Shown here: one piece after another, positions 5,357 through 33,110 of the stretch
Layout of the letters: every line of letters starts with the position of its first letter
Position numbering within the stretch: the first letter of the stretch is position 1
From: a virus
Reading direction: 5' to 3' (one strand)
Virus record (IMG/VR): IMGVR_UViG_3300045988_064554
Length of the DNA: 39,756 nucleotides
The notes under the pieces: generated by a model
The model's database searches: none
What the model was told of the DNA's origin: nothing
What the model saw: the letters and a program-made list of their open reading frames with translations, nothing else
Translations under genes and position numbers: made by a program

Positions 5357-6379
5357 TTAGACAACTGCTGTACCAACCTTGGACTTGATAAGACCCATCT
5401 TAACGTTCTTTGTATTGAACTTAAGGCTGTAGTTTGCAGACTCACCAAGTTCTGCATAAGTCGGTGATTCTTTTGCAATCTGATCAACTGCTAAAGAAAG
5501 ACCATTCGGATGCAGCACCTTACCCTGCTTTGTATAGAACTTGTCAATACCTGCGGATGCTTCCGGGTCATAGTTGGTTGTATACTGATTCTCATAGTTG
5601 CTCTTATCACAAGATAAAAATGCACCTTCGCCAAACAGATATGTGTTGTAAACCGCATCTGCACCTGCTCCTGTAGCTGTAAATCTGTCAGTTACAAGTA
5701 CGTGTTTACCTGCGATAGTTGGCAATGTAATTTCTTTCTGAATCACACCGTTGACAACATACTTATCATAGTCAACCATTTCCATTTTCTTGTACTCTTT
5801 GAAGATCATGGAATGCATAACCATCAGACCGAGACCACCTGCCATATCACCAAGTGCTGCCTGTTCTGCATCGTAAATTGTACCTGCTTCAATGTTTGTC
5901 TTAGTACCTTTAGTAAGATCAAGTACATGATCGCTAAGTGCTGCAACTGCCAATACTGCCTGTGCAATGTTCATCAGTTCTTTTTCCCAAACCTGACCAT
6001 AATAACCTGCAATCTTATTTCTGATCAGTGTCATAGGGTCAGCACCAGTTAATTCCTTTGTAAAGTCTTTAGCCTTGAATGCTTTCATTCTCTGGATAAG
6101 CATACAAGTCTGTTTGTCACCGCTGATTTCAACAGGTGTGTTGTTTGTTTCACCATCGTTGTTCAGTGCTTCCATACCGCTTTCATTTGCGTCAATCGGC
6201 TTATAGATTGGAATTGTTGCCACGTTTCCATGCTCACCGATCAAGTCCATAATAGAACTGTCCTGCTGCACGATACCGGAAGCAATGATTGGTGTAGTCC
6301 AATAGTCGGCTTCCTGCATCATCCCGGTAAATACTTCTTCATCAAAAGCAAAACCGCCAAAATTTCCTGTTCTTGCCAT
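5357..6379 (-). CDS. Major capsid protein.
   Basis: 340 aa ORF directly downstream of the scaffold gene, in a conserved head-module position. Confidence 0.85.
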   Translation of the reverse strand: MARTGNFGGFAFDEEVFTGMMQEADYWTTPIIASGIVQQDSSIMDLIGEHGNVATIPIYKPIDANESGMEALNNDGETNNTPVEISGDKQTCMLIQRMKAFKAKDFTKELTGADPMTLIRNKIAGYYGQVWEKELMNIAQAVLAVAALSDHVLDLTKGTKTNIEAGTIYDAEQAALGDMAGGLGLMVMHSMIFKEYKKMEMVDYDKYVVNGVIQKEITLPTIAGKHVLVTDRFTATGAGADAVYNTYLFGEGAFLSCDKSNYENQYTTNYDPEASAGIDKFYTKQGKVLHPNGLSLAVDQIAKESPTYAELGESANYSLKFNTKNVKMGLIKSKVGTAVV

Positions 6380-6402: not shown

Positions 6403-7074
6403 TTAGTGTACATTTAACTGTTTGAATAACTCCGGGTTTTCCTCTTTGAGTTTCAGTCTTTCGTTGTAACCCATCTTAAGGAACTGTTCTTTGGTAACTG
6501 TCTTGTCTTTATCCCCACCCGGCAGGTTGTTTTCAATAATCTTTCTGTTACCACTCTGCTGCTGATTACCATTGGATGCTTCAAACATGGTAGGATGCTG
6601 TGTTTTAAGACCTGAAATCAGATCATCTTCACCCTTGATTTTTCCATCATCACCAAGTTTGATTTCACCTTTTTCCTTTGCCTTGAATACAAGATAATCA
6701 ACATCAACCGCACCGGCTGCAACCAACGCAAATTTCAATGCATTTTCTGTTTTCAGTTCTGCATTCTCTTTCTTAAGGTCTGCAATCTCTGTTTCATATG
6801 CAGTGATTTTCTGCTGTGTTTCTTCATCTTTTCCGGCTGACTTTTTCAGTTCTTCAATCAGGTTATTAGCCTTGGTCAGTTCTGTAGTCTTACCGGAAAG
6901 GTCAGTTTCAAGGTTGGTGTATTTGTCCTTAGACACATAACCACCATCAGTAAGGTTAACCATCTTGATCAGCTTCTCTTTGTTCTTTTCATCACCGTTA
7001 TAGGCATTGATTGCTTGTACCAGTTCATCGTAGGTGATAGCCTTATCACCAAAAAATGCTTTTAAAAATTCCAT
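6403..7074 (-). CDS. Scaffolding protein (Phage_GP20-like coiled coil).
   Basis: Coiled-coil K/E-rich sequence. I prefer the start at ATG 7074, which has the RBS GAGAAAGGAAG. The track ORF extends to 7146. Confidence 0.8.
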   Translation of the reverse strand: MEFLKAFFGDKAITYDELVQAINAYNGDEKNKEKLIKMVNLTDGGYVSKDKYTNLETDLSGKTTELTKANNLIEELKKSAGKDEETQQKITAYETEIADLKKENAELKTENALKFALVAAGAVDVDYLVFKAKEKGEIKLGDDGKIKGEDDLISGLKTQHPTMFEASNGNQQQSGNRKIIENNLPGGDKDKTVTKEQFLKMGYNERLKLKEENPELFKQLNVH

Positions 7075-7198
7075 GTTTCTTCTTCCTTTCTCCGTCATGT
7101 TTTTATATCCGGTGTCACCGGGAACGGTCAACAGTTTATATCTCATGTTGCAGGAGTCATTTCAGCAGCAGTTTAAACGTCATAAGCCTTTTTCGGAC

Positions 7199-7223
7199 AA
7201 AAGAAAAACACCCTTGCGGATGT
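7199..7223 (-). terminator. Rho-independent terminator after the Tad2-like gene.
   Basis: Minus-strand RNA reads ACAUCC-GCAA-GGGUGU followed by UUUUUCUUUU. Confidence 0.7.
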
Positions 7224-7274
7224 CTTAAAAATACTATTTTACCCATAGTTGGAAGATTCTGGATCACCGCCTTT

Positions 7275-7769
7275 CTACTCTGCGAACACCCAGTCATCTG
7301 CCAGCATATCAGCCTGGGAAGCAAGCCATCCCATCTGAACACCAGATGTTCCGCAGAATGCGATAGCCATATTACCGATGGCATTATGTTCGCAGTTTAC
7401 GATTTCACCATCTGTTGCTTTGTAAGAGATCCCTGTGGCGAGCTGGATGTACTGTTTCTTTCCGTTCCAGCCTTTACGAGCTACTTTGAACCCTCTTTTC
7501 AGATATTTAATTGCTTCTCCGAAAGAAAAGGTTGCTTCTCCGCCAAGAATCGGACAGTTTCGACCATTAGCATAAATCCACTCATCTGAAAGAATGTTCT
7601 GAATCGTATACTCCACTCTCTGTGTTTCTCTAATGTCCAGACAGCCGCCATCTTTGGTGTACATGAGAATCGTCTGAGCTTCTTCATCCCACCACCAGTA
7701 TCCAGACCATGACGGTAATTTTACCGCGAGTCCAGATTTCATTTCTCTAAACGCTTCTTTGAAATTCAT
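7275..7769 (-). CDS. Tandem two-module DUF2829 / Tad2-like protein (candidate anti-Thoeris signal sponge).
   Basis: The C-terminal half (FSFGEAIKYLKRGFKVARKGWNGKKQYIQL...WLASQADMLADDWVFAE) matches the DUF2829 pattern as I remember it. The N-terminal half (MNFKEAFREMKSGLAVKLPSWSGYWWW...ILSDEWIYA) repeats the same pattern in shorter form. GGAGG lies 9 nt upstream of the ATG. Confidence 0.7.
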   Translation of the reverse strand: MNFKEAFREMKSGLAVKLPSWSGYWWWDEEAQTILMYTKDGGCLDIRETQRVEYTIQNILSDEWIYANGRNCPILGGEATFSFGEAIKYLKRGFKVARKGWNGKKQYIQLATGISYKATDGEIVNCEHNAIGNMAIAFCGTSGVQMGWLASQADMLADDWVFAE

Positions 7770-7782
7770 AATTCACTACCTC

Positions 7783-8067
7783 CTATTCTTCTGTATGGCA
7801 TGTATTAGTTATTTTACCGTATACATCTTCATACAGCTCCTGCTTATCACCGTTATAGGTATACTCTGCATAAATACCATCGCCGCTTACTGTAGTAGAT
7901 ACCAGGCATTTATAGTTCTGAAGCGTTTTACAAGACCACACCACAAACACATTAGATAAATCAATCGGCGGTGTTGTCGGTGTAACGGCATAGCCGTTTT
8001 TGTTATACCATTCCACCATCTTCTTTTTGCACACGCTCTGAAAGTGCGCCATACCTGTAATAATCAA
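7783..8067 (-). CDS. Small conserved phage protein, DUF6275-like (FVVWSCKTLQNYKCLVSTTVSGDGIYAEYTYNGDK).
   Basis: The track ORF runs to 8142, but its first codons overlap a terminator hairpin. More plausible starts are TTG 8067 (GAGAGG 9 nt upstream) or ATG 8052. Confidence 0.55.
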   Translation of the reverse strand: MIITGMAHFQSVCKKKMVEWYNKNGYAVTPTTPPIDLSNVFVVWSCKTLQNYKCLVSTTVSGDGIYAEYTYNGDKQELYEDVYGKITNTCHTEE

Positions 8068-8100
8068 TATCTTTGACCTCTCTTTCTTAAAATTGGGTAT

Positions 8101-8135
8101 AAAAATACCACCAATCATTTTTTGACCGATGGTAT
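8101..8135 (-). terminator. Rho-independent terminator, copy 1 of a duplicated hairpin.
   Basis: Minus-strand RNA reads AUACCAUCGGU...AUUGGUGGUAU followed by UUUUU. It starts at the stop codon of 8135..8350. Confidence 0.65.
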
Positions 8136-8350
8136 TAATCAATTATTATTTCTGGTTTGGGATACTTTTTTGGTACCTGCGTACCATATTTCTTAACTGT
8201 ATAATCATAGTTGTCGGCAACGCTTTTTAATAAATCATCTGCATATGCCGATTGATCAAAATCTATCTCATTTGGAATTTTAGGACAATATCCAAAATGA
8301 AGTACAAAATCTTTATGCGCCTTTTCAAATTTCGAGCATAAAACATTCAT
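8135..8350 (-). CDS. Hypothetical 71-aa moron protein.
   Basis: ORF track with the RBS AAAGGAGG upstream. Near-identical terminator hairpins lie on both sides. Confidence 0.65.
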   Translation of the reverse strand: MNVLCSKFEKAHKDFVLHFGYCPKIPNEIDFDQSAYADDLLKSVADNYDYTVKKYGTQVPKKYPKPEIIID

Positions 8351-8423: not shown

Positions 8424-8457
8424 AAAAATACCACCGGTCATTTCTGATCAATGGTAT
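8424..8457 (-). terminator. Rho-independent terminator, copy 2 of the duplicated hairpin.
   Basis: Minus-strand RNA reads AUACCAUUG...ACCGGUGGUAU followed by UUUU. It shares the forward-strand core AAAAATACCACC with copy 1. Confidence 0.6.
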
Positions 8458-8567
8458 TAAAAAATCTCCGGCCAATCTGTTAATTTTTCGCTTTCTTCTT
8501 TCAGACGCTGAAGTTCTTCTTCTCTTTCTTCTGGTGTCATATCTGGATTCGTAATAACAACATCCAT
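8457..8567 (-). CDS. Possible 36-aa acidic micro-ORF (MDVVITNPDMTPEEREEELQRLKEESEKLTDWPEIF).
   Basis: Found by hand translation; it is below the track cutoff. It starts 8 nt after the MuF stop, has a weak RBS, and ends at the terminator. Confidence 0.3.
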   Translation of the reverse strand: MDVVITNPDMTPEEREEELQRLKEESEKLTDWPEIF

Positions 8568-8575
8568 ATATGATC

Positions 8576-10093
8576 TTATTTTAATTCTTCCCATATTATA
8601 CCATACTCCTTTGATATTTCATTTAATGCTCTTGTATGTGCCTCTTCTATACTCAAATTATAAGGTTCATTCTGGTATTTGTCAATTCGTCCATCCAACA
8701 TTCCAGGAAGAAACGGCTTACTTCCAGCTTTATACTTATATACCCTTCCGCTATGAGCCACTGCTATCCCGAAGTCATATTTTCTATATCCAGCAGCTAC
8801 AAAATCGCTACCTGTCGGCGGTATGTTCGTTGGATGATTATGTATTCCTATAGTTCCATTTTGTTTTCTTATCCTCTCCGAATCTTCTTTTGAAATTGTA
8901 ACTCCTAATTCATTCTTTCCTGATATTTCTCTAAGAATCAGTTTTCCATCTGTATCAATAATATATAAATCTTCTCCATCTGTTCCATTTCTATGAGTCA
9001 ACATTGCTGTTGCATAACTTCTAAGTGCATCATTGATAGCAGTATTTGTTGTAATTTTATTAAATTTCTTTCTAAATCCTTCTGATCTAATATAATCTAA
9101 ATCAACCTTATTCGTTCCGATCCTTTTAACAGATGTTAAATACGAACCTTTTTCTGTTTCTTTAGCAACGCTTAGGTACTTTTCCTTAAACTCACCAAAC
9201 TCTTTTGTCTTATCTAACCCAAAGAATTCTGCACGCTCTTTTAAAGTTTCAAGTTCCTTCTCGTCCAATGCCCATTTTGCACGTTGCAGCAGACAGCACC
9301 GACAGTTACAAACGTTCTTTGCAGAACCGCCAACACCCGGTGCTTGCATTTTCTCACCGCCAACATCGAACGGTTCATCAATTTCCCTGATTTGTCCGTC
9401 ACACTCCCGGTGTTCGTCCCTTGTCCGTCCGTCAAGTGTGGAATCCCACTGTTTGACTATATCAGCACCCTTTTTCTTTGCCCCATGCTGACCGTCAAGG
9501 GCTGCTTCATTCTGTATTCTATGCCCTTCTGTCCGGGCAATCCGTATCGCATTGTTATATGCTTTACGAAAAGGGCTGTTCATACCCTTGGCAATCCTTA
9601 ATGCCATTTCATTCCAAGTTGAACCGCTTGCAATTCCCCTTGAAAGTTCGGCACGAATTGACCGCTTCAGATAATCAACATCTTCACCTAAACGCTTATA
9701 CAGACTGCTTGACAGTTTACTGTTGGTTTTCAATGCTTTGACAACCTGATCTTGCTGAATTGGTATTACAAGCGGTATACCGCTAAGATGCAGGTCGTAA
9801 TACATCCCCACATAACCATTGATATATGACTGCTGTAGATAATCAGCTATTGTTGTAAACTGCCCTTCGTGCAAGTCATACAGGATTGATTCTATCTGAT
9901 CAACCATAATCTGCTGATATTCTTTTTGGTATATGATGCTTTGCAGATTTTCAAGGTCTGTCCTTGCAGACAGTTCCCTGATTTTCTGTTCACAATCCTT
10001 TTTCGCCTGTTCATATACTCTTTCTAACAGCTTGATTACTTTCTTTTCATCATTAAGCTGTGCCTGTTGTACTTCCTTCTGTGCCTTGTTCAC
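8576..10093 (-). CDS. Minor head protein (MuF / SPP1 gp7 family) fused to a C-terminal RadC/JAB-like domain.
   Basis: MuF core motifs are RIARTEGHRIQNEA and DSTLDGRTRDEHRECDGQ...NCRCCLL. The C-terminal 180 aa carry EDLYIIDTDGKLI...TIGIHNHPTNIPPTGSDF. Confidence 0.85.
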   Translation of the reverse strand: MNKAQKEVQQAQLNDEKKVIKLLERVYEQAKKDCEQKIRELSARTDLENLQSIIYQKEYQQIMVDQIESILYDLHEGQFTTIADYLQQSYINGYVGMYYDLHLSGIPLVIPIQQDQVVKALKTNSKLSSSLYKRLGEDVDYLKRSIRAELSRGIASGSTWNEMALRIAKGMNSPFRKAYNNAIRIARTEGHRIQNEAALDGQHGAKKKGADIVKQWDSTLDGRTRDEHRECDGQIREIDEPFDVGGEKMQAPGVGGSAKNVCNCRCCLLQRAKWALDEKELETLKERAEFFGLDKTKEFGEFKEKYLSVAKETEKGSYLTSVKRIGTNKVDLDYIRSEGFRKKFNKITTNTAINDALRSYATAMLTHRNGTDGEDLYIIDTDGKLILREISGKNELGVTISKEDSERIRKQNGTIGIHNHPTNIPPTGSDFVAAGYRKYDFGIAVAHSGRVYKYKAGSKPFLPGMLDGRIDKYQNEPYNLSIEEAHTRALNEISKEYGIIWEELK

Positions 10094-11555
10094 CTATTCC
10101 ACCACCTTCATCATCCGGTATAATAGAATCAAGATCATCTTGCACCTGCTGCACCTTATTAGCTTCATTATCCGGCAACTTGTCCTTCACATCTTCATAA
10201 TCAATATCAAGAACATCACAAATATACTGAATAATCAGATCATCACCAAAAACGTTTGCAAGTGACATCAGTGTGTTGATTTGTACCTGTTGTTTCTGTG
10301 CTTCTGTAAGTTCATTCTGTTCATTTTCCTGTTCATTACTCATTACTTCATGGGTGAACTCAAAATAAACATCTGTGATCTGATAATCTGTACCATTCTG
10401 TTGATTGATTTCATCAATGCATACTGCTACGATCTTACGCAAGAACCGCTTGATGTTCCTTTCAAGGTGTTTACATCTAAGATCAAGCAGTGAATAGGCT
10501 GCCTTGATTGCAATATTGGTTGTTGCTGATGTATCTTTCAGACCTGACAAGTTCAGACCCATACCAAAACGGTATATGTTCTTTTCATCCAGTTCCAACT
10601 TAACCTTTCGTGCTTCATACGGTACATCTACTGTATGTACTTCAATACCACCATCTGAACCGACACCAACAATCTTTTTTGTCTTAAGATTCTGCTGCAA
10701 TTCATCAAGGTTATCACCTTCAAACCCTTTAACTGCATATAATGGATGGTCAAAGTCAATCAGGTTATTGGAAAGACTGGATGCCATAAGGTCATAATCG
10801 TCAATCAGATCTTTTACTGCTTTCAGGTTACTGAACTGTTTCTTGTTATTATCCAACCGGAAGAATGGCAAGAATCCAAGTGAATCAATATAGGTATTAT
10901 CATCACCATCAACCTGATACAGTATATGAGGTCTTGGGTTCACCTTGGCTTTATCATCAAGCTGTATTTCCCATTCATCTGTCTGAACATAATAAACAAC
11001 CTGTTCATCGTCCCAATCCATGATTTTCTTTATTCTGTGACCTTCCTTGTCAACCCGGTCAACGTACCAGTAAATTACATGGTCTTTCTTATCTTCTGCA
11101 AATCGTGCTTCTACTTCCACAACACCGATACTGTCAGCACACGTAAATTTCAACTTGTCAGTGCTGTCTTTCATAGCATACATATAAGCAAAACCCTTTG
11201 TCTGACAGTCCGTAAGTGTTTCTGACAGTTCATCAATAAAATCATCATTGTTATTGAATCTTGCATCAAGTTCACTCTGTAATTCAGGCACATCACTGAA
11301 TACAAAACCATCTGAACCTGAAAGGGTGTATTGTGTACCCTGTTCTGTCAGTTCCTTAAAGAATGGGTGTGGTATTCTTACATTTGCCCGGCTTGTATCT
11401 TCCACAAGCTGACCATCAGAATTGAAGTAAAACATTCTGTAATTTTTTATATCGTGATCACCGTCAAAATAGCGTTCACCTATTCTTGCAAAATGCTTTT
11501 TCACTGATGCAGCATCTTCATCAATGAACATCTTTATTTCTTCGATCGTAAGCAA
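10053..11555 (-). CDS. Portal protein (SPP1 Gp6-like).
   Basis: 500 aa, located between terL and the MuF gene. The N-terminal pattern is typical of SPP1-type portals. Confidence 0.85.
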   Translation of the reverse strand: MLTIEEIKMFIDEDAASVKKHFARIGERYFDGDHDIKNYRMFYFNSDGQLVEDTSRANVRIPHPFFKELTEQGTQYTLSGSDGFVFSDVPELQSELDARFNNNDDFIDELSETLTDCQTKGFAYMYAMKDSTDKLKFTCADSIGVVEVEARFAEDKKDHVIYWYVDRVDKEGHRIKKIMDWDDEQVVYYVQTDEWEIQLDDKAKVNPRPHILYQVDGDDNTYIDSLGFLPFFRLDNNKKQFSNLKAVKDLIDDYDLMASSLSNNLIDFDHPLYAVKGFEGDNLDELQQNLKTKKIVGVGSDGGIEVHTVDVPYEARKVKLELDEKNIYRFGMGLNLSGLKDTSATTNIAIKAAYSLLDLRCKHLERNIKRFLRKIVAVCIDEINQQNGTDYQITDVYFEFTHEVMSNEQENEQNELTEAQKQQVQINTLMSLANVFGDDLIIQYICDVLDIDYEDVKDKLPDNEANKVQQVQDDLDSIIPDDEGGGIGEQGTEGSTTGTA

Positions 11556-11908: not shown

Positions 11909-13012
11909 CTAGAATATCCAGCCGTTACCTTTCTTGATATATTTTTCTAATGCATATCGCATCGCATCCATCAAATGATTGAAGTCATCAATAGGGCGGT
12001 TCAGTTTATTACCGAACTTGTCCTTATCCCAAGTATAGTTGCTGATCTCCGTCAAGAAATTCACACATCTTGGGTGTATGATGATTTCAAAGTCCTGAAT
12101 AAACTGAATACCGCTGTTGATACTGTCCTTACCTTTTTCAGCACCTTTGACCCTAAGACCATAACCCTTTAACTGATCAATAGACTTTGGTTCTGCTGAA
12201 TCCGCTGTGATTCTTTCCTTTGCATAGCCCATATCAGTGATATTCTGATATATTCGCTCATTGGAAAGACCTGCACTATACATTTCATCCCACACGAATA
12301 TCTTTTTGTTCTTCGTGTCAATGAATCCACAAAACAATGCAGATGGGTCATTTGTATAACCAAAGTCCAAGCCAAAGGCTGAATCAATCTTGTATTGCTG
12401 TCTGATCTGTTCCAGTGTAAAGGCTTCTTCGTGCCAATTCTCATACACAAGACCATCAACAATACCCCAGTCCCCAAGACCTGCCACTGCGTAACGTCTT
12501 GGGTTCTGCTTTCGCATGGTTTCAAAAACCTTAAGATCGGCTTTATCTAACCATTCATTGCACTTGTAATTGGTTGTAAGTGCAAGGGTTTCATCATCAG
12601 GGTTATCAAAAAACCGTTTCTTCAACCAATGGTGTTCATTCCAAGGGTTGAATGTTACGGTGATCTGTTTGAACAGGTTTGAACCTTCCGGTATTGCTCC
12701 ACGGATAGATTCATCGAGCATATTGAAATCGTCCTCTGAACTGATCTCATATGCTTCTTCAATCCACATCCAGCACAATACACCCTGATCGACAGTAATG
12801 GATGTTACTTTCAGCGGATCGTCAAGACCTCTGAAATAGATCTTCTGACCTGTCGGTTTGTAGGTCATTTCAAGTGGTGACTCTTTAATATCCCAGAAGC
12901 TGTCAACACCAAGTCGGTGGATCGCCCATTTTAACTCTGTAAAACAGGAATCCTTTAATGTCCTGTATGTCTTCCTGACAACTAAGGTATTAGCATCAGG
13001 ATACTTCATCAT
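11909..13012 (-). CDS. terL: Terminase large subunit, C-terminal 367 codons (PBSX/TIGR01547-like), lacking its Walker A segment.
   Basis: The sequence MMKYPDANTLVVRKTYRTLKDS... is typical of the region just after Walker A. Upstream in the same frame the sequence reads KVEDTALWYITN, preceded by a TAA. Confidence 0.85.
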   Translation of the reverse strand: MMKYPDANTLVVRKTYRTLKDSCFTELKWAIHRLGVDSFWDIKESPLEMTYKPTGQKIYFRGLDDPLKVTSITVDQGVLCWMWIEEAYEISSEDDFNMLDESIRGAIPEGSNLFKQITVTFNPWNEHHWLKKRFFDNPDDETLALTTNYKCNEWLDKADLKVFETMRKQNPRRYAVAGLGDWGIVDGLVYENWHEEAFTLEQIRQQYKIDSAFGLDFGYTNDPSALFCGFIDTKNKKIFVWDEMYSAGLSNERIYQNITDMGYAKERITADSAEPKSIDQLKGYGLRVKGAEKGKDSINSGIQFIQDFEIIIHPRCVNFLTEISNYTWDKDKFGNKLNRPIDDFNHLMDAMRYALEKYIKKGNGWIF

Positions 13013-15972: not shown

Positions 15973-17343
15973 TTAAGCAAATCTTAATTGTTCCTGTGTA
16001 TCATCAATGCTCATGTTCGGCATTCTCTCACCGACTTTCAGATACGGACAGTTTGCTTCTACAAGCTTTTCTGCCATAATCGGTACTACACTGTTTCCAA
16101 TCCTTGCCACCTGTTTTGCAATCGGGTATTTCTTCCAGTTATAATCCCGGTCTATAATGTAATCTTTCGGGAACCCTTGCATTACTTTTAGTTCTTCCGG
16201 CTTCAGCATCCGCAAAAAGATATCTGATATGATGTATTTCTCGCCCTTGATATCCAGGATTACATTCACCAGTCCAAAACGGTCTTTCGTTGTGATCGTA
16301 TCAAGCGGTCTATCCAGTGTCTGTCCGCACCCACCGCCGTAATACTTAATCAGAAATGCTGATACCAATCCGAAATGCCCCGGAGATGTCGTAATTGTAT
16401 GTAATGGTTCATCACAGCCCTGTCCAATCCCCGTCTTGTAATACTTCGTGATAAATGCTGTCACAAGTCCATATCTATTCGATGTATCAATCGTCTTAAT
16501 TGGTTCTGTCAAAAGCTGTCCTCTTGAATCACCGGCTCTCGTCTCTCCGTGATACTGGATGATGTATGCCAATGCTTCTCCGTTTCTCACGATATAAGGA
16601 GACTCAGCATCGATAACGTATTTCTTGATGCCGTTTGCAATTCTCTTCTGTGTAGCTTCTGCAAGTGGCTTCTTGCGGTCAAATATCGAACTGCCAAGAT
16701 CTGACCAGTCAATGTAATCTCCACAAGGTTTCCACTTCTTAAAGTCGATGCCGTCAGCACTGTGAGTTTGCTCTGGCCATCTGATTTCCCGTCCATCTCT
16801 ACGGAATACTGCATACCATCTCTTTCTTGTGGTCGGTGCTCCGTAGTCCGCAGCTATCAATTCTCTACTACCGAAACGGTACCCGAGACTCTTCATTGCC
16901 GTAATAAATTTCTTGTAATCCTCGCCTTTTCTCTCTGGAATTGGATATCCTTTTTCATCCAGCGGGCCCCATTGCTGTATCTCTTCTACGTTCTCCATAA
17001 GAATTACATCCGGCAGAATTGCTTTTGCGTGCTTATATACTGCCCACGGAAGTATCCTCAAGCCTTTCTCTCTTGGCTTACCACCTTTTGCTTTTGAATG
17101 GCTTGTGCAATCCGGACTCGCCCACATAAGAGCCACATGCTGTCCTTTTACATATTTCTTTAAGTTGACCTTGAAAATATCCTCGGTCAGATGAAGTGTG
17201 TCCGGGTGGTTGGTCTTATGCATCAATATAGCGTCTGGATCATGGTTGATTGCTATGTCTACCGGTCTGCCGAGTGCCATCTCAATTCCAACTGATGCAC
17301 CCCCTCCACCAGCAAAGCAATCTACGATTAAATCTTTCATCAC
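15973..17343 (-). CDS. DNA (cytosine-5) methyltransferase, orphan.
   Basis: Motif I is DCFAGGGG, motif IV SPDCTSHS, motif VI ENV and motif X RIGNSVVP. No adjacent endonuclease gene is present. Confidence 0.9.
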   Translation of the reverse strand: MMKDLIVDCFAGGGGASVGIEMALGRPVDIAINHDPDAILMHKTNHPDTLHLTEDIFKVNLKKYVKGQHVALMWASPDCTSHSKAKGGKPREKGLRILPWAVYKHAKAILPDVILMENVEEIQQWGPLDEKGYPIPERKGEDYKKFITAMKSLGYRFGSRELIAADYGAPTTRKRWYAVFRRDGREIRWPEQTHSADGIDFKKWKPCGDYIDWSDLGSSIFDRKKPLAEATQKRIANGIKKYVIDAESPYIVRNGEALAYIIQYHGETRAGDSRGQLLTEPIKTIDTSNRYGLVTAFITKYYKTGIGQGCDEPLHTITTSPGHFGLVSAFLIKYYGGGCGQTLDRPLDTITTKDRFGLVNVILDIKGEKYIISDIFLRMLKPEELKVMQGFPKDYIIDRDYNWKKYPIAKQVARIGNSVVPIMAEKLVEANCPYLKVGERMPNMSIDDTQEQLRFA

Positions 17344-27118: not shown

Positions 27119-27772
27119 ATGAGTTTTGCAAAAGAAGTGCATGAAACAATAGGCACAAAAACAGACGAAGGGATTCGAGACAAACTAATTGAAAATTACA
27201 AAAAATGCAACATTTTAATTCAAACTCAAAATCAATGGATGCTAATAGAAAAAAGTTCCGATATTTCCAGTAGCATTGAATCTCAAAAAAATCTTATTGC
27301 AAAAGTCATATCTAAATCGCTGAAAAATAAAAATCTTTACTTCGAATTAGGTATAATGACCGAAAAAAATAATTTTTGGAAATATGTTACCGATAACGCC
27401 GACTGTTTGACTGATATCGATATTACTCTTTCTTCACCAAATTTCTTGAACGGTATAAAAACTGTTTCAGAGTTTTTGCATCAGACAAATGATATTTACA
27501 ATAACACTAGCGTGGGTATACACTTGAAAAATGAAGAAGGACATCTTATTATTAATAAAGATAATGAATTTTTACGAGATTCTATTCGCTATGCTTCTGC
27601 AGGTTGTGGAAGGTGGAAAGCAAAAGCTTCTAAAGATTCTAAAGGATGTTCTAGCATAGATAATCCTTTTATTATACATTTACCTGAAAATGTAAGTCAG
27701 CTTAAAGATTCTGACGAAAAACATATTCTTGATGCAATTAGTCACTTAGAAAGAATTGACTCAGAAACGTAA
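27119..27772 (+). CDS. Orphan 217-aa soluble protein (AT-rich cassette, gene 1).
   Basis: ORF track. I recognise no catalytic or nucleotide-binding motif. Confidence 0.7.
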   Translation: MSFAKEVHETIGTKTDEGIRDKLIENYKKCNILIQTQNQWMLIEKSSDISSSIESQKNLIAKVISKSLKNKNLYFELGIMTEKNNFWKYVTDNADCLTDIDITLSSPNFLNGIKTVSEFLHQTNDIYNNTSVGIHLKNEEGHLIINKDNEFLRDSIRYASAGCGRWKAKASKDSKGCSSIDNPFIIHLPENVSQLKDSDEKHILDAISHLERIDSET

Positions 27773-27787
27773 AAAGGAATTGATTTT

Positions 27788-28384
27788 ATGAAATTAAAAA
27801 AATTTTTTATTTTGTTGGCGTCATGTCTTGCCACTTCTGTTGCTTTAACTATTACTTTATCGCCATTTGACGAAGATGTTATTAATTATGGCGTGGTAAT
27901 TAATATAGAAATTGCACTTTTTTCCGTTTCTTTAACTATTGTGGCACTACTAATCACTATTTTAGAAAAGTATAAAGAAAAAGTGACCAATCAATCAGTA
28001 TGGGCACAAAACAGTACTAAAATTTTAAAAGAGCTTTGTGAAAACACAATATCATTATTGTGTTTATTAGCCCTGCTTTTCCTGGCAACAATTTTTAAGT
28101 CCTTGTTAATTTTAATTCCTGTAGTAGACGTAATGACAGTAATCTTGCTTTTTTCTATAATTCTTTCTATAATTGCTTGCTTTGATACAACCATTAGCGT
28201 TTACCATTTAATAACCAATTTAAAAGATGTACTCGTTCAGCCTTCTGTATCTATCGACAATCTATCGCAAAAAGAATTATATTTAGTAGATGCATACAGG
28301 CAATTAGACGCAAAACACAAAGAAGAACTAGAGGATTTACTTAGGGCTTTTTCGATAGACCAACAAATCCGAACAAATAAATAA
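27788..28384 (+). CDS. Orphan 198-aa membrane protein with four hydrophobic segments and a charged C-terminal tail (AT-rich cassette, gene 2).
   Basis: Hydrophobic stretches at about aa 6-24, 34-58, 86-110 and 114-137. It starts 16 nt after gene 1. Confidence 0.7.
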   Translation: MKLKKFFILLASCLATSVALTITLSPFDEDVINYGVVINIEIALFSVSLTIVALLITILEKYKEKVTNQSVWAQNSTKILKELCENTISLLCLLALLFLATIFKSLLILIPVVDVMTVILLFSIILSIIACFDTTISVYHLITNLKDVLVQPSVSIDNLSQKELYLVDAYRQLDAKHKEELEDLLRAFSIDQQIRTNK

Positions 28385-28403
28385 GATATAACCGCTTCGG
28401 CGT

Positions 28404-28440
28404 TTATATAGAGTATGTGGTGTACTCAAAGGAATAGGCT
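28404..28440 (+). promoter_or_regulatory. Leader element copy A: TTATATAGAG, hairpin GAGTA-TGTGGTG-TACTC, then ...AGGCT.
   Basis: Aligns to copy B at 29076-29112. Confidence 0.55.
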
Positions 28441-28461
28441 CGTAAAAGAAAGGAAAAGCTT

Positions 28462-29061
28462 ATGAAAAAGAAAATTGTAACAATGTTGTTGGTTGGTGCT
28501 ATGGCATTATCGTCTACTGCTTGCGGTAGCACTCCAAAAAATGAAGTGAAAAGTGAAACTTCTACAGACCAGTCGTCTGATGATGGAGAGGAACTGAAAG
28601 CCGAAAAGAACCTACTTAGCGTTGAAGTTACACTTCCAGCTTCCCTTGTCAAAGACGGTGAAGCTGAACTGGATGAAGAAGCTAAGGAAGCTGGTGTTAA
28701 AGAGATCACTAAAAACGACGATGGTTCTATCACCATGAAAATGACAAAGGAAGCTCATAAAGAACTTCTTAGTTCAATCAAGGAAAGTGTAGATGAAAGT
28801 AACGAAGAAATTATCGCAGATAAGGAAAACTACCCTTCCATTGAATCTATCACTTACAATGATGATCTGACAGAATTCACTGTCAGTGTTGATGGCGCAT
28901 CATTTAATGGTCTTGAAAGCTTTGTTGCTATTGCTTTTTACATGGAAGGGAATATTTATCAAGCATTGAATGCTGTTCCGGAAGATGAAATTAATACTAC
29001 CGTTAATTTCGTAGACAAAGACTCTGGAGAAGTTATAAACTCAGCTGATTCTTCAACATGA
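28462..29061 (+). CDS. Prophage lipoprotein.
   Basis: Signal peptide plus lipobox: MKKKIVTMLLVGAMALSSTAC. Confidence 0.8.
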   Translation: MKKKIVTMLLVGAMALSSTACGSTPKNEVKSETSTDQSSDDGEELKAEKNLLSVEVTLPASLVKDGEAELDEEAKEAGVKEITKNDDGSITMKMTKEAHKELLSSIKESVDESNEEIIADKENYPSIESITYNDDLTEFTVSVDGASFNGLESFVAIAFYMEGNIYQALNAVPEDEINTTVNFVDKDSGEVINSADSST

Positions 29062-29075
29062 AAGATCAGCAGTAA

Positions 29076-29112
29076 TTATATAAAGCGTGTGGTGCGCTTA
29101 GCAAACAAGGCT
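29076..29112 (+). promoter_or_regulatory. Leader element copy B: TTATATAAAG, hairpin AAGCG-TGTGGTG-CGCTT, then ...AGGCT.
   Basis: Aligns to copy A. The stem sequence differs but base pairing is kept, and the 7-nt loop is identical. Confidence 0.55.
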
Positions 29113-29143
29113 ATATCACTAAAAGAAAGAGAGGGAAACACGA

Positions 29144-29722
29144 ATGAAAAAGAAAGGCGGATGTTTAAAAACTGTATTAATTGTTATCGGCGTAATTATT
29201 ATACTCGGTATCATAGGTTCTGTTATTGGTGGAAAGGATGACGGACCTAAAAAGGTAAACAGCGACACTTCTACTGACGCAACGCAAGATGCTTCAAAGA
29301 ATGAATCAGAGCCGGAACAGACTGTATTTAACGTTGGAGATACTGTGAATCTCAATGATGTTGAAATTACACTTGTGAACATCACCGAATCTGCCGGTGG
29401 GGAATATACTACCCCTGACGAAGGAAACGAGTTCTTAATCCTTGAGTTTGAGATTGCAAACAACTCATCAAAAGATATCAGCATCAGCTCCGTAATGAAT
29501 TTCGAAGCCTATTGCGATGATTACTCACTAACACAAGATCTTGTTGGACTTCAAGCCCCTGAAGCTAGTGGAAAGAATCAGCTTGATGGAAGTGTTGCTG
29601 CTGGAAAGAAGATGAACGGTGTGATTGCATATCAGGTACCTACAACTTTCTCGAAATTCGAGGTTAGCGTTGCTCCTGATTTCTGGTCATCAAAAGATAT
29701 TCAGTTTGTTTACAGTAAATAG
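29144..29722 (+). CDS. Membrane-anchored DUF4352-like protein.
   Basis: An N-terminal TM helix is followed by VGDTVNLNDVEITLVNI...GNEFLILEFEIANNSSKDISI. Confidence 0.7.
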   Translation: MKKKGGCLKTVLIVIGVIIILGIIGSVIGGKDDGPKKVNSDTSTDATQDASKNESEPEQTVFNVGDTVNLNDVEITLVNITESAGGEYTTPDEGNEFLILEFEIANNSSKDISISSVMNFEAYCDDYSLTQDLVGLQAPEASGKNQLDGSVAAGKKMNGVIAYQVPTTFSKFEVSVAPDFWSSKDIQFVYSK

Positions 29723-29979: not shown

Positions 29980-30120
29980 GACACACCAAACTCCGAAGAG
30001 CGGTGCAGATTATATGAAGCAATAATATTGTATCATCTTCGGGGCAGTCATACAAGCAGAACTGTTGTTCTGTTGTGGGGCTGTTATTTTTGTACTCAAA
30101 AAATAGAAAGGAAGATGATT

Positions 30121-31218
30121 ATGTGGGTTGAAGAATTAAAGAATGGCAAGTACAAATTTGTGGAACGCTACACCGATCCAATGACCGGGAAGTCAAAACG
30201 AGTAGCTGTTGTAATGGATAAAAACACAGCAAAGAATCGTAAAATGGCAGCACTGACTCTGTCAGATAAAATTGAGAGTGCCCTCACACCGCAAGTGGAC
30301 AGAATCCGTTTAAAAGACCTTGTCGAGCTGTACAGAAAAGAGCAAGTCAAGACACTTAAACAATCTACTTACAGACGGAACATTGCCGTGTGTAACACGC
30401 TTATGAGCATTCTTGGCAAAGATATCTATGTTGACAAGCTGACAGCCGGATACATCAGAGAACGTTTTCTCGGCACTGGTAGAGAACACAGCACTCTAAA
30501 TGAATGGATGATCAGATTAAAAGCGTTGTTACGTTGGGGATACAAGAATGATTATATTGCAGACATATCTTATCTTGGAAAGATAGAGCGTTTCAGTGAT
30601 ATACCTCATCGGCAGAAAATAGAGAACAAATTTGTTGAATCATTGGAGTTAAAGGAGTTAATCGCTGGAATGACCGTTGTAGAATGGAAGTTGCTTACTG
30701 AATTTCTCGCCTTGTCTGGTCTTCGATTTGGCGAGGCTGCAGCTCTGAACACTTCTGATGTTGATTTGAAGAATAGGAAAATTCATGTAACGAAAACGTA
30801 TGACAATGTAGCAGACATCGTTACAAGCCCAAAGACACCGTGTTCTGTGCGAGATGTATATATACAAGACGAGTTACTCACTGTCTGTAGAAACGTGCTC
30901 CTATGCTACCACAAAGGCACTGTAGTGGCATTCAGCACAGCTTTCTTCCCTGGAACAACGAAAGAACACATCAACTTCGATTGCTACTCTAAATATTTAC
31001 GTGAAACATCTGAACGAATCATTGGGCGGAGAATCACACCGCACACTCTTCGGCATACACATGCCAGTTTACTGATGGAGCAAGGAATTGACATTGACAG
31101 TATCTCAAAAAGGCTTGGACATAATGACAGCAGAATTACACAAGAAATTTATCTCCACGTCACAAAGAAATTAGAAAGTAAGCGAAACGAACAGCTAAGG
31201 GAGTTAAAAATTTTATAG
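30121..31218 (+). CDS. int: Tyrosine recombinase / integrase.
   Basis: The C-terminal catalytic pattern is TPHTLRHTHASLL...LGHNDSRITQEIYLHV. The ATG at 30121 follows GAAAGGAAG. Confidence 0.9.
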   Translation: MWVEELKNGKYKFVERYTDPMTGKSKRVAVVMDKNTAKNRKMAALTLSDKIESALTPQVDRIRLKDLVELYRKEQVKTLKQSTYRRNIAVCNTLMSILGKDIYVDKLTAGYIRERFLGTGREHSTLNEWMIRLKALLRWGYKNDYIADISYLGKIERFSDIPHRQKIENKFVESLELKELIAGMTVVEWKLLTEFLALSGLRFGEAAALNTSDVDLKNRKIHVTKTYDNVADIVTSPKTPCSVRDVYIQDELLTVCRNVLLCYHKGTVVAFSTAFFPGTTKEHINFDCYSKYLRETSERIIGRRITPHTLRHTHASLLMEQGIDIDSISKRLGHNDSRITQEIYLHVTKKLESKRNEQLRELKIL

Positions 31219-31555: not shown

Positions 31556-32737
31556 TTATTCATTCTGCTGCATATATCCATTCTTTCCGAACATGTACTT
31601 CTTACCGCCAATTACTAATGTTTCATCACAAGCCATTTCTCCATTATCTTTGAAGTAATACCATGCTTCTGGCAGTTTTAACCATTTATTTTTGTACATC
31701 GCTCCAAGCGGCATATCTTTTGTGGCTATTGTATTGTACCAGTAATAATCATCTCCTGCCTGTCTCCATCCGGTAAGCATCTGGCCTGTCTGATAACGTC
31801 TGTCTTCTCCTGATTTAACAAGATAATAGTCGTTACCGGCATATCCTTTTAACTCACCTTCCAGTAGTGTTCCCTGTGCATGTTTTCCTTCTCTCTTCGG
31901 TCGTAGATAGAAATAGTTTCCACCTGCCAGAACCCAACCGGTTAACATAGCCCCAACCGGTTTCTTTGGTGCGACTACTCCATCATTCAGGAAGTACCAT
32001 TCCCCGTCAATCTTATTCCATCCGGTCCGCATTCCCCCTGTTCCGTTAAGCCAGTAGAAATTTCCCTGGTACTGAATCCACTGATTCTGGACAACGTACC
32101 CTTTCTCGTTAAACCAGTAAAATGTCCCTGCTATTTTTCTCCAACAGTTCCGTGGATAGCTTCCATCCGGATCCTGCCACCAGTCACCGACTTTGTCTTT
32201 TATCCATTTTCCCGTCGTTTTTTTCGTCACAATAATTCCGAAAGCCCTGAGGATTCCTTCCGCGATTTCCGCAATATGATCATTAAAAATTTTTCTGTCC
32301 TGATCATTGTCAATAAATCCGCATTCCATTAAACGATAATTCAGCCCTCTCTTGGCAGCCCGGTCTACATTTGCCAGGTCAGAACGATACTTGATATTCT
32401 CGGCTCTTCCCGGCATTAATGTAGAGATAAAAAGAGCAAGTGACAAATCGTATTCGTCTGGAGTGAATCCCTCTTTGATGATGATATGTCCGCCTCGTGC
32501 CGATCCACCGCCTGCATCCATATGCAGCTCTAAAATGTTTGAATCTTCCGAGAAGTTGTAAGTACTTATCAGCTTATCTCTGTACCAGTTTTTACTCGTA
32601 TCCCCAAGAATGACCGCTTCTCCGCCAAGTTCTTTAATTTTGGCGGCCAACGTTCTGACGCGTTCTGCTTCTGTATATCCACCACCATCGGCTCCCGGAT
32701 CCCCTTCACCGTGTCCACAAATAATAAATAACTTCAT
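31556..32737 (-). CDS. Endolysin: N-acetylmuramoyl-L-alanine amidase (Amidase_3-like) plus C-terminal cell-wall-binding repeats.
   Basis: N-terminus MKLFIICGHGEGDPGA...ECGFIDN, and multiple GW/YYF-type repeats. The ATG at 32737 has AAGGAAG 6 nt upstream. Confidence 0.9.
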   Translation of the reverse strand: MKLFIICGHGEGDPGADGGGYTEAERVRTLAAKIKELGGEAVILGDTSKNWYRDKLISTYNFSEDSNILELHMDAGGGSARGGHIIIKEGFTPDEYDLSLALFISTLMPGRAENIKYRSDLANVDRAAKRGLNYRLMECGFIDNDQDRKIFNDHIAEIAEGILRAFGIIVTKKTTGKWIKDKVGDWWQDPDGSYPRNCWRKIAGTFYWFNEKGYVVQNQWIQYQGNFYWLNGTGGMRTGWNKIDGEWYFLNDGVVAPKKPVGAMLTGWVLAGGNYFYLRPKREGKHAQGTLLEGELKGYAGNDYYLVKSGEDRRYQTGQMLTGWRQAGDDYYWYNTIATKDMPLGAMYKNKWLKLPEAWYYFKDNGEMACDETLVIGGKKYMFGKNGYMQQNE

Positions 32738-32786
32738 ATTGCTCTTCCTTTCATGTACTGCATGCATCTCTTGCACCGGTACAATT

Positions 32787-33110
32787 CTACTTTTTCTTAT
32801 ATGCATTCCGATTCCACATTTCTGTCACACGTTCCCAGCCGCCTGTGCTGACCAGGTAAACTATAAAAGCGGCAATGAATGATGCGAAAATGTAATACCA
32901 CTCAATCACTATCTGATAATAGGTGCACAAGACGATTACTGCTGCCGGTGTCAGAATCAGTGATGTGATCAGTGCCACAACATTCGTCTGCACTTTTTTC
33001 AGTGCCGGCATCTCCTTGATTGCCTGCACGATCACGCTGACCAAGAAAGCCAGCACTCCAATTCCTGCTAAAATGTAACTCATGTACTGCATTAATGTTT
33101 CAATGTTCAT
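32787..33110 (-). CDS. Holin.
   Basis: Three hydrophobic segments and a basic C-terminus (NAYKKK). The ATG at 33110 has GGAGGG 8 nt upstream. It lies directly upstream of the endolysin. Confidence 0.75.
   Translation of the reverse strand: MNIETLMQYMSYILAGIGVLAFLVSVIVQAIKEMPALKKVQTNVVALITSLILTPAAVIVLCTYYQIVIEWYYIFASFIAAFIVYLVSTGGWERVTEMWNRNAYKKK

Follow-up and report, generated by a model that had tools for sequence, protein, structure and literature searches.

Tad2 proteins form one of the most widespread and functionally versatile families of phage sponges. To our knowledge, all structural and biochemical work on the family concerns single-module homotetramers, in which symmetric pockets are built of identical half-sites. 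The initial annotation of the gene described here noted that the described members are single-domain proteins, and this holds for those characterised in the PDB: SPO1 Tad2, HgmTad2, SptTad2 and ModTad2 all consist of one module.

SPO1 Tad2 (gp34.65; PDB 8SME/8SMF/8SMG) and HgmTad2 (PDB 8KBI-8KBM) are homotetramers of ∼89-104 aa chains, with the ligand pockets where protomers meet. SPO1 Tad2 contacts gcADPR through W25, N26, W73 and D79, together with S76 and T78 (preprint 10.1101/2023.05.01.538930). In HgmTad2 the gcADPR residues are W21, N22, G23, W87, L88, S90, T92 and D93, and binding was lost in the W21A/N22A and S90A/T92A/D93A mutants (PMC10680739). The specificities of Tad2 homologues are varied and include His-ADPR, N7-cADPR, cUMP/cCMP and cyclic dinucleotides (PMC12393519). 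Fusions of one sponge to another have been published as Tad2-Acb4 (Pasteurella phage Pm86) and Tad2-Sequestin (PF21825), Acb4 being the name given to PF13876 (PMC12265669). A further relative, pdAcrIIA7 (PDB 9KZR; PMC13133391), has a Tad2 core after an extra N-terminal domain, a "head" of two α-helices, as well as a long extended insertion and a claimed tracrRNA-binding activity.

We examined a Tad2-like gene in a viral DNA stretch of 39,756 nt (the window; IMG/VR record IMGVR_UViG_3300045988_064554). The gene encodes a Tad2-family (DUF2829, PF11195) protein with two different Tad2-fold modules per chain; the protein is probably an anti-defence sponge of the phage, and an anti-Thoeris-type signal sponge is its most likely predicted function. 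Our search of the literature for tandem Tad2, Tad2-Tad2 or DUF6275 proteins found nothing relevant. The features of the locus are as follows.

7195..7226, minus strand: terminator-like hairpin of 9 pairs with a GCAA loop and a T-rich tail, 49 nt past the stop codon of the two-module gene
7275..7769, minus strand: two-module Tad2-like gene, ATG start, TAG stop, 164 aa (ORF list)
7278..7532, minus strand: C module, residues 80-164, canonical Tad2/DUF2829 domain (Pfam, PDB, Foldseek)
7533..7568, minus strand: linker, residues 68-79 (NGRNCPILGGEA; alignment A1)
7569..7769, minus strand: N module ("N-type"), residues 1-67, short divergent Tad2-fold domain
7778..7784, minus strand: Shine-Dalgarno AGGAGGT, 8 nt before the ATG, read from the sequence
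7783..8142, minus strand: DUF6275 protein of 111-119 aa, upstream neighbour (PF19791, 7.3e-29)
8135..8350, minus strand: 71-aa ORF, a gene call in all sibling contigs
8457..8594, minus strand: 45-aa ORF, first of the accessory block, overlapping the MuF stop (ORF list)
8657..8685, minus strand: sigma-70-type consensus TTGACA-17-TATAAT, 12/12 positions, within the 3'-terminal part of MuF

The encoded protein (18.5 kDa, pI 5.3, net charge -3) is acidic overall, and the identical 164-aa sequence is found on at least 21 public contigs. All four motifs quoted in the initial annotation are present, FGEAIKYLKRGFKVARKGWNGK at residues 83-104, WLASQADMLADDW at 148-160, FKEAFREMKSGLAVKLPSWSGYWWW at 3-27 and ILSDEWIYA at 59-67. 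A Pfam scan with a cut-off of 25 bits gave PF11195 as the only family in the protein (84.7 bits, 6.4e-24, two stretches matched), with neither PF13876 nor PF21825; phrog_1048 matches residues 1-163 (2e-59), the full length. The PDB sequence matches were Tad2 and AcrIIA7 proteins only, and when the full-length AlphaFold2 model (pLDDT 90.5) was compared with the PDB by Foldseek, 24/24 significant matches were Tad2. The Tad2 fold is defined by an N-terminal helix followed by an antiparallel β-sheet, with a short helix preceding the last strand; it was found both in the full-length model and in a model of the N half alone, and in the former the secondary-structure elements run in parallel order in the two halves. 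The pTM of 0.74 for this predicted single chain indicates a defined packing of the N module against the C module. When the full model was searched against the folds in BFVD, only single-module proteins matched and none was a structural twin along the whole chain (best TMq 0.43).

The C module belongs to the canonical, SPO1/Hgm-like type of Tad2 domain and keeps the predicted gcADPR (3'cADPR or 2'cADPR) pocket residues. Residues 74-164 alone score 75.2 bits against PF11195, whose gathering score is 25, which bears out the original assignment of the C-terminal half to DUF2829. Sequence matches in the PDB include SPO1 Tad2, HgmTad2, SptTad2, ModTad2 and pdAcrIIA7, and Foldseek aligned the module to Tad2 structures with E ∼1e-6, TMt up to 0.81 and ∼30% identity. 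In the PDB sequence alignments the pocket equivalents are W101, N102, G103, W148, L149, S151, A153 and D154, all identical save T78/T92, which is A153 here. Thus the fold and the equivalents of W101/N102/W148/S151/D154 are common to SPO1 Tad2, HgmTad2 and the C module, and the motif GWLASQADMLADDW hardly differs from GWLASQTDMLANDW of HgmTad2. The adenine-side contacts of SPO1 Tad2, in contrast, are altered (I63 to A137, T65 to C139, D67 to T141 and H71 to M146), so the real ligand of the C module may not be 3'cADPR. Within the two-module family the C-module pocket is itself variable, N102 being found in 19/48 sequences and W148 in 27/48, so that not every member can work alike. Cyclic-dinucleotide binders of the HgmTad2/SptTad2 type are recognised by an insertion of 35-41 residues between β2 and β5 that forms the pocket. 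This long insertion was not found in the C module: W101 and W148 are 47 residues apart, compared with 48 in SPO1 Tad2 and 66 in HgmTad2, and SPO1 Tad2 with its spacing of 48 does not bind cyclic dinucleotides (PMC10680739).

The N-terminal ∼68 aa were originally said to repeat the DUF2829 outline in shorter form. A check of the domain boundaries against PF11195 secured the C half only; the N half alone reached 16 bits (E 0.018, profile positions 1-31 only) against the gathering score of 25, and the Pfam HMM therefore does not establish it. That the N module is a second, shorter Tad2-fold domain is instead supported by BLASTP, profile-profile comparison, AlphaFold and an orthologue. BLASTP aligned the two halves end to end (E 1e-4), and hhalign of an N profile (128 sequences) against a C profile (20 sequences) gave 96.1% probability and E 3.2e-9 over columns 1-67 versus 3-85. 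For the N half, a model with pLDDT 95.4 had Tad2 chains and nothing else among its best 15 PDB hits (TMq 0.63-0.71), followed by a next hit with TM 0.46. The 68-aa orthologue from Clostridium phage vB_CpeS-CP51, with 52% identity to the N module, covers the whole PF11195 profile (positions 1-72) at 27.8 bits, above the Pfam threshold. The repeat of the outline is thereby upheld.

The motifs of the N module are W21-x-G23-Y24-W25-x-W27, D45-I-R47-E-T49, Y54-T55, N58 and W64. Conservation across the family is highest in this module, with W21, G23 and W25 invariant and D45, R47, Y54, T55 and W64 conserved at ≥90%, and 497 clusters (50% identity) match it. By alignment, the gcADPR pocket of Tad2 is present in the C module and absent from the N module, where W21 alone of the pocket equivalents is kept: N is replaced by S22, W by Y54 and D by N58, and there is a gap at S76. 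In the hhalign register W21/D45/R47/T49/Y54/N58 correspond to SPO1 W25/I63/T65/D67/W73/D79. Conserved N-module residues occupy 4/9 pocket-equivalent positions, an enrichment that is not significant at an 85% conservation cut-off (hypergeometric P 0.19); T49 and N58 lie slightly below this cut-off.

The linker that joins the modules contains two nearly invariant residues, N71 and G77, in alignment A1 of the family, and the head-core linker of pdAcrIIA7 aligns with it (GELLGEETGTF versus PILGGEATFSF). The 164-aa protein is a hetero-fusion of two paralogous Tad2 subfamilies. Identity between the N and C modules is no higher than ∼20-25%, and the N-type occurs independently; a recent internal duplication was rejected on these grounds. 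The term "covalently duplicated" used in the initial annotation is accordingly replaced here by a separate short subfamily, which is free-standing in the equivalent slot of other phages. Two equal half-pockets in a symmetric "fused dimer" are also unlikely on alignment grounds, since of the four canonical pocket residues three are missing from the N module. Nor did the two-module form prove unusual: phrog_1048 covers it at full length, the 90% cluster of the protein has 1008 members, and a C-type module follows the N-type module in 68 of the 150 best N-type cluster representatives. The N-type module was also found fused to the nucleotide-related domains DUF4406, MazG, dUTPase and DHFR, and joined with DUF6275 in one protein on 145 contigs.

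Relatives of the N module that stand alone are CP51 gp006 (68 aa), Ruminococcus phage RG-TP1 gp24 (75 aa) and P0285 (19 contigs). The free-standing short DUF2829 proteins CP51 gp006, RG-TP1 gp24 and BFVD A0A8S5LV12 share 51-53% identity with the N module as well as its W-GYW-W, DIRET and YT..N motifs, and the A0A8S5LV12 model superposes on the module with an rmsd of 0.9 over 68 columns. They differ from the present protein in not being fused to a canonical Tad2, and none has been characterised. In Bacillus phages phi4J1 (gp62, gp63) and Waukesha92 a canonical Tad2 (REGWNGK...GWLASQTDMLANDW) comes directly after a divergent DUF2829 gene, in which GGYW is present and the equivalents of N26 and W73 are missing. 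The pair mirrors the module order of the 164-aa protein and has overlapping start and stop codons, but these are two genes and not one chain; phi4J1 gp62 lies between the N and C types and is not a clear N-type. We concluded that the adjacent pair of phi4J1 is an unfused counterpart of the two-module gene.

In the window, the two-module gene occupies part of the interval that separates MuF (8576-10093) from the scaffold gene (6403-7146). The initial annotation regarded this as a moron position, and an accessory placement stands; the gene is, however, not inserted alone but closes a run of four small ORFs, after those for the 45-aa, 71-aa and DUF6275 proteins. The strong ribosome-binding site ascribed to the gene was seen, and its Shine-Dalgarno sequence overlaps the stop codon of the DUF6275 gene upstream. 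The proposed terminator (7199-7223) was likewise recognised as a terminator-like hairpin at 7226-7205 on the minus strand, followed by TCTTTTGTCC; a scan of the 2.4-kb region gave 7 terminator-like sites against 1.5 expected. The DUF6275 gene is probably co-transcribed with the Tad2-like gene. The consensus at 8657-8685 is a possible candidate promoter for the accessory block, by consensus match only, and an 11/12 sigma-70-type site is found at a comparable place in Dorea phage DO134P1. Pfam and PDB searches gave no match for the 45-aa and 71-aa ORFs, nor for the ∼195-aa C-terminal extension of MuF.

Megablast of positions 1-25000 of the window against GenBank phages found no match, and the relative detected, at the protein level only, was Dorea phage DO134P1. 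Its equivalent slot holds an orthologue 77% identical to the two-module protein and a 46-aa counterpart of the 45-aa ORF; no terminator comparable to 7195-7226 was found behind the orthologue. In RG-TP1 and CP51 the same MuF-scaffold slot holds the free-standing N-type protein, and in CP51 this adjoins a PF13876 (Acb4-family) protein. Sibling contigs that are 99.4-99.8% identical to the window on both flanks carry DUF4406, a 42-aa ORF and a Tad1 homologue in place of DUF6275. The exchanged segment is the body of the DUF6275 gene, 7850-8134 (blastn boundaries; gene calls L005-L010), and the cassette lies directly upstream of an identical two-module gene. The Tad1 homologue is a 133-aa protein of the cbTad1 type that matches PDB 7uav/8kbe at E 7e-47. 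The slot thus has two features of an anti-defence island, anti-defence neighbours (Tad1 and the Acb4 family) and a content that varies among close relatives.

If the gene encodes a signal sponge, the protein would oligomerise in the infected cell, in the simplest case as a dimer of chains that provides four modules, comparable to the Tad2 homotetramer. The pocket residues of the C module would sequester TIR-made (Thoeris-type) ADPR-derived signals, so that the host effector would stay off. The N module would replace the partner protomers and would either complete asymmetric pockets with the C module or form N:N' pockets of its own with different chemistry. Published Tad2-Acb4 and Tad2-Sequestin proteins resemble this arrangement in having two small ligand-sponge domains per chain encoded by a phage accessory gene; the present protein differs in that both domains are Tad2 folds. 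Counting against the sponge reading, the gene sits in the late structural module and sponges are expected to act early; the candidate promoter is a consensus match only, and the terminator is not kept in the Dorea phage.

The alternatives differ mainly in the role they give to the N module. It might be an independent sponge for another signal, in which case one chain would neutralise two. Its occurrence alone and next to nucleotide-related domains, its being the most conserved part of the family, and the position of W21, D45, R47, T49, Y54 and N58 at SPO1 pocket equivalents all agree with such a bifunctional protein, and two-sponge fusions such as Tad2-Acb4 provide precedent (PMC12265669). On the other hand, there is no characterised N-type protein, the pocket-position enrichment is not significant, and the conservation could come from an oligomer interface or from the folding of a very compact domain; we regard this version as possible but rather doubtful. 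A similarly tentative joint proposal is that the N-type constitutes a new non-gcADPR sponge subfamily or supplies an asymmetric N:C half-pocket, that the slot is an anti-signalling island and that DUF6275 is a new anti-defence family. The six conserved residues would then line a pocket for a non-gcADPR immune signal; alternatively, the N module would provide an asymmetric N:C pocket with its second, specialised half, a type of pocket that a homo-oligomeric Tad2 cannot evolve. DUF6275 might also be a sponge; its assignment to anti-defence is suggested by its exchange with the Tad1 and DUF4406 cassette in ≥99%-identical phages and by its fusion to the N-type module.

An AcrIIA7-like anti-CRISPR, in which the basic groove of a core tetramer binds tracrRNA/sgRNA and blocks Cas9 loading with the N module as a regulatory head, is very unlikely. 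It is true that the best PDB sequence match is pdAcrIIA7 (9kzr, E 5.7e-13), aligned from the similar linker on, and that K91, K99 and K104 align with pdAcrIIA7 K58, K66 and K71, mutations of which abolish sgRNA binding (PMC13133391). Yet the two-helix head of pdAcrIIA7 is replaced here by a β-rich Tad2 fold, the long extended insertion is absent and the protein is acidic. Full-length AcrIIA7 with its head is reported to be inactive, Li et al. could not reproduce any Acr activity for HgmTad2 (PMC10680739), and sibling phages have Tad1 rather than Acr/Aca genes as neighbour. Still less credible is a head-morphogenesis or virion component without a role in defence evasion. The location inside the portal-MuF-scaffold-capsid module, on the strand shared with those genes, speaks for it, but we rejected a structural role because the slot content varies (tandem; N-type alone; N-type with Acb4-family protein; with or without Tad1, DUF4406 and DUF6275). 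Detectable homology is moreover solely to soluble signal sponges, and DUF2829 genes occupy quite different genome positions in other phages.

For the preferred reading, a sponge with two different Tad2-fold modules, the hetero-tandem common in human-gut Clostridia phages means that the two half-sites are genetically separated, which could give a single small protein asymmetric pockets or a dual specificity. Cheap and concrete candidates for experiment are the tandem protein, the N-type protein that stands alone and DUF6275. The MuF-scaffold slot is recognisable and could be mined for further anti-defence genes in temperate siphophages of Lachnospiraceae and Clostridia. Some homologues of the two-module protein are called as "long" versions of 208 aa; we judged these to be upstream start mis-calls, since the extension is unconserved and the sequence after an internal Met is the same.

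The tandem gene, encoding the two-module Tad2-like protein, lies in a run of same-strand genes ordered portal, MuF, 45-aa ORF, 71-aa ORF, DUF6275, tandem gene, scaffold and major capsid. The features of this interval are:

10053-11555 (-), portal (PF05133)
8576-10093 (-), MuF-like minor head protein (PF04233)
8685-8657 (-), perfect sigma-70 consensus TTGACA-17-TATAAT, inside the MuF 3' end, just upstream of the four-ORF block
8457-8594 (-), 45-aa ORF, accessory block
8135-8350 (-), 71-aa ORF, accessory block
7783-8142 (-), DUF6275 protein (PF19791, 7e-29), 13 nt upstream of the tandem gene
7778-7784 (-), Shine-Dalgarno sequence AGGAGGT, 8 nt from the tandem gene ATG, overlapping the stop codon of the upstream gene
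7275-7769 (-), tandem Tad2-like gene, ATG start, TAG stop, 164 aa (ORF list)
7226-7205 (-), terminator-like hairpin, 49 nt past the tandem gene stop, followed by a T-rich tail
6403-7146 (-), scaffold protein (PF06810), next after the tandem gene
5357-6379 (-), major capsid protein, next after scaffold

The strong ribosome-binding site claimed in the initial annotation is present, a terminator-like hairpin lies close to its proposed terminator, and its four quoted peptide motifs were all found (residues 3-27, 59-67, 83-104 and 148-160). Its moron-like position between MuF and scaffold also holds, but the gene is no lone insert, because three small ORFs precede it in the MuF-scaffold interval; it closes a block of four small accessory ORFs. 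The consensus match at 8685-8657 (-) could be a promoter of this block. Dorea phage DO134P1 carries an 11/12 sigma-70 match at a comparable place (L001 3161-3190).

The C-terminal half (C module, residues 80-164) is a canonical Tad2 domain. The Pfam HMM PF11195 (Tad2-like; cut-off 25 bits) scored 84.7 bits for the whole protein; with residues 74-164 alone the score was 75.2 bits. Significant PDB sequence matches were limited to pdAcrIIA7 (9kzr), HgmTad2 (8kbi), SPO1 Tad2 (8sme, 8wje), SptTad2 (8wjd) and ModTad2 (9eib, 8v3e), every one aligned to residues about 73-164. An AlphaFold2 model of the full protein, with 48 diverse family members as input, had a pLDDT of 90.5 and a pTM of 0.74, and the 24 PDB matches that it had at E ≤ 0.001 consisted entirely of Tad2 chains (~30% identical; target-normalised TM up to 0.81). 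The ligand is contacted in SPO1 Tad2 by W25, N26, W73 and D79, plus S76 and T78 (10.1101/2023.05.01.538930), and in HgmTad2 by W21, N22, G23, W87, L88, S90, T92 and D93, where W21A/N22A and S90A/T92A/D93A lost binding (PMC10680739). PDB sequence alignments map these contacts to W101, N102, G103, W148, L149, S151, A153 and D154 of the C module, the sole difference being T to A153. On the adenine side, SPO1 I63, T65, D67 and H71 correspond to A137, C139, T141 and M146. HgmTad2 and SptTad2 bind cyclic dinucleotides through a long insertion (PMC10680739). The C module does not have it, since its W101-W148 spacing of 47 residues resembles that of SPO1 (48) and not that of HgmTad2 (66).

The N half alone reached only 16 bits against PF11195 (E 0.018, profile positions 1-31 only), below the cut-off, so that the HMM search suggested in the initial annotation supports the C half but does not by itself show the N half. 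Four further comparisons gave a different picture. BLASTP of residues 1-73 against 74-164 produced an end-to-end alignment (E 1e-4) in which the F-EA...G..V....W.G start and the L.D.W..A end both line up. With the N half as query against 1.84 billion cluster representatives, 497 clusters matched at E ≤ 0.001; an N profile (128 sequences) and a C profile (20 sequences) were both built from these hits, and hhalign of the two gave 96.1% probability (E 3.2e-9, columns 1-67 vs 3-85). Modelled by itself with AlphaFold2 (pLDDT 95.4), the N half had as its top 15 PDB matches only SPO1 and Myroides Tad2 chains (TMq 0.63-0.71, probability 0.99-1.00), after which the next match fell sharply to TM 0.46 and probability 0.47. 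CP51 gp006, a 68-aa protein of Clostridium phage vB_CpeS-CP51 that shares 52% identity with the N module, scored 27.8 bits across the whole PF11195 profile and so passes the cut-off. From BLASTP, hhalign, the fold matches and CP51 gp006 we concluded that the protein begins with another, divergent domain of the Tad2 fold, as the two DUF2829-like modules of the initial annotation had implied.

The two modules are not copies of each other. The N module has 67 residues and the C module 85, and in a comparison of 48 two-module proteins conservation is far stronger in the N module than in the C module. W21, G23 and W25 are invariant; Y24, W27, D45, I46, R47, Y54, T55 and W64 are conserved at about 89% or more, and T49 and N58 at about 83-84%. 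The C-module pocket residues are kept in 19/48 (N102), 27/48 (W148), 35/48 (W101) and 39/48 (D154) of the two-module proteins. By the hhalign register, only the first tryptophan of the SPO1 pocket is retained in the N module (W21), and N26, W73 and D79 are replaced by S22, Y54 and N58. N-type genes also stand alone in CP51 (gp006), Ruminococcus phage RG-TP1 (gp24), BFVD A0A8S5LV12 (53% identical to the N module, rmsd 0.9) and the database protein P0285 (on 19 contigs), and N-type modules occur as an N-N tandem (P0234) and in fusions with DUF6275 (P0171 and P0271, the latter on 145 contigs) and DUF4406 (P0253). Other fusion partners are MazG, dUTPase, DHFR, a RyR domain and a PG-binding muramidase (P0223, P0179, P0235, P0248, P0247). 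The N-N tandem and the fusions with DUF4406 and these other partners are mostly single cluster representatives, and some of them may be assembly or gene-call artefacts.

In Bacillus phage phi4J1 two separate DUF2829 genes with overlapping stop and start (gp62 and gp63, L004 977-1482) follow the order of the tandem protein: a divergent DUF2829 (GGYW, without the N26 and W73 equivalents), then a canonical Tad2. The pair looks like an unfused, and possibly a hetero-oligomeric, counterpart of the tandem protein. An adjacent DUF2829 pair is also present in Waukesha92. Self-duplication was rejected on the grounds that the N module is compact, has its own conserved motifs and is found independently. 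The tandem protein joins two DUF2829 subfamilies in a hetero-fusion, in place of the covalently duplicated dimer first proposed.

The two-module architecture is common in nature. The tandem protein matches phrog_1048 over its full length (2e-59), its 90% cluster has 1008 members, and the exact sequence was found on 22 contigs (NCBI, JGI, ENA, Logan). A word-indexed search returned 6642 clusters at E ≤ 0.001, of which the best 120 share 79% identity or more, with alignments that almost always span the full query. Among the best 150 N-type representatives, 68 have a C-type module after the N module; frameshifts or truncation in metagenome gene calls affect many others. The 208-aa homologues (P0005-P0020), with a 44-aa unconserved extension before the same Met-x-F-x-EAF start, are probably upstream start-codon mis-calls. 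Our literature search found no paper describing a Tad2-Tad2 tandem; Li et al. limited one analysis to "short Tad2 versions" (PMC10680739), and the Tad2 fusions in print have Acb4 (PF13876) or Sequestin (PF21825) as partners (PMC12265669). The architecture is therefore "unusual" only in comparison with characterised proteins.

We examined the MuF-scaffold slot in related phages. An orthologue with 77% identity occupies the same portal-MuF-small ORF-gene-scaffold position in DO134P1, and RG-TP1 has a free-standing N-type gene immediately ahead of its scaffold gene. In CP51 (L003 1501-2171), N-type gp006 and a 154-aa gp007 with PF13876, the Acb4 anti-CBASS sponge family (PMC12265669), lie between the minor head protein and scaffold. 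The exact-sequence look-up gave the strongest evidence on context. One sibling contig from it is 99.99% identical to the window (L005). Four others (L006, L008, L009 and L010) carry the identical 164-aa gene and the same flanking genes, and all four lack DUF6275. By blastn, L006 is 99.4% and 99.8% identical to the window on the two sides of the slot, and window 7850-8134 (the DUF6275 gene body) is exchanged for 959 bp (L006 2962-3920) coding for a DUF4406 protein (28.8 bits), a 42-aa ORF and a 133-aa Tad1 homologue, which aligns along its entire length with Tad1 structures from Clostridium botulinum (7uav, 8kbe-8kbh; E 7e-47). This is a clean cassette exchange, and the tandem gene of the siblings is directly preceded by a Tad1 sponge gene. 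We concluded that the slot is an exchangeable anti-signalling island, a context that supports an anti-defence role of the tandem gene. For DUF6275 itself we found no literature and no PDB relative. It lies C-terminal to an N-type module in a 168-aa protein on 145 contigs; since it is fused to a sponge, it is a candidate anti-defence family by the logic of PMC12265669.

A signal sponge is the likely function of the tandem protein, as predicted from sequence. The protein would oligomerise, a dimer of chains supplying the four modules of a Tad2 tetramer; C-module residues would sequester a TIR-derived ADPR-type signal, and activation of the host effector would be blocked. Two protomers contribute the same residues to each gcADPR pocket of SPO1 Tad2 and of HgmTad2 (10.1101/2023.05.01.538930; PMC10680739). 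As the N module lacks three of the four key residues, two arrangements are conceivable: C:C' plus N:N', with one canonical and one variant pocket, or two asymmetric N:C pockets. That the N module adds a ligand specificity of its own is a tentative extension of the sponge explanation, and we hold it to be doubtful. An RNA-binding function of the AcrIIA7 type is very improbable: K91, K99 and K104 do align with the RNA-binding K58, K66 and K71 of pdAcrIIA7 (PMC13133391), but the head of that protein consists of two helices, whereas the N-terminal domain here is a Tad2 fold; the tandem protein is acidic (pI 5.3), Acr activity is contested for this family (PMC10680739), and Tad1 adjoins the gene in sibling phages. 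Overall, the initial annotation was confirmed in its observation and partly supported in its interpretation: the two-module protein at a moron-like position is real. The leads that follow are the N-type subfamily, pockets that may be asymmetric or dual, and a putative anti-defence role of DUF6275.

Elsewhere in the window we noted:

11909-13012, TerL
15973-17343 (-), C5 cytosine DNA methyltransferase
30028-31218 (+), tyrosine integrase
31556-32806 (-), amidase endolysin with choline-binding repeats

The window is a temperate siphophage, and the methyltransferase, integrase and choline-binding amidase point to a Gram-positive gut host. Megablast of window 1-25000 found no nucleotide-level match among GenBank phages. 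The C5 methyltransferase possibly has an anti-restriction function. Some MuF proteins are known to bear additional cargo domains at the C terminus; the C-terminal extension here (~195 aa, residues about 311-505) has no Pfam or PDB match and contains GIHNHPTNIPPTGSDF, which we take to resemble the HxHP...S..D motif of JAB/RadC-type domains. A plus-strand ORF block (27119-29722) adjoins the integrase and includes a DUF4352/DUF5067 protein (29144-29722) and two ORFs without a family match; lysogenic conversion or superinfection exclusion is a possible role of these genes.
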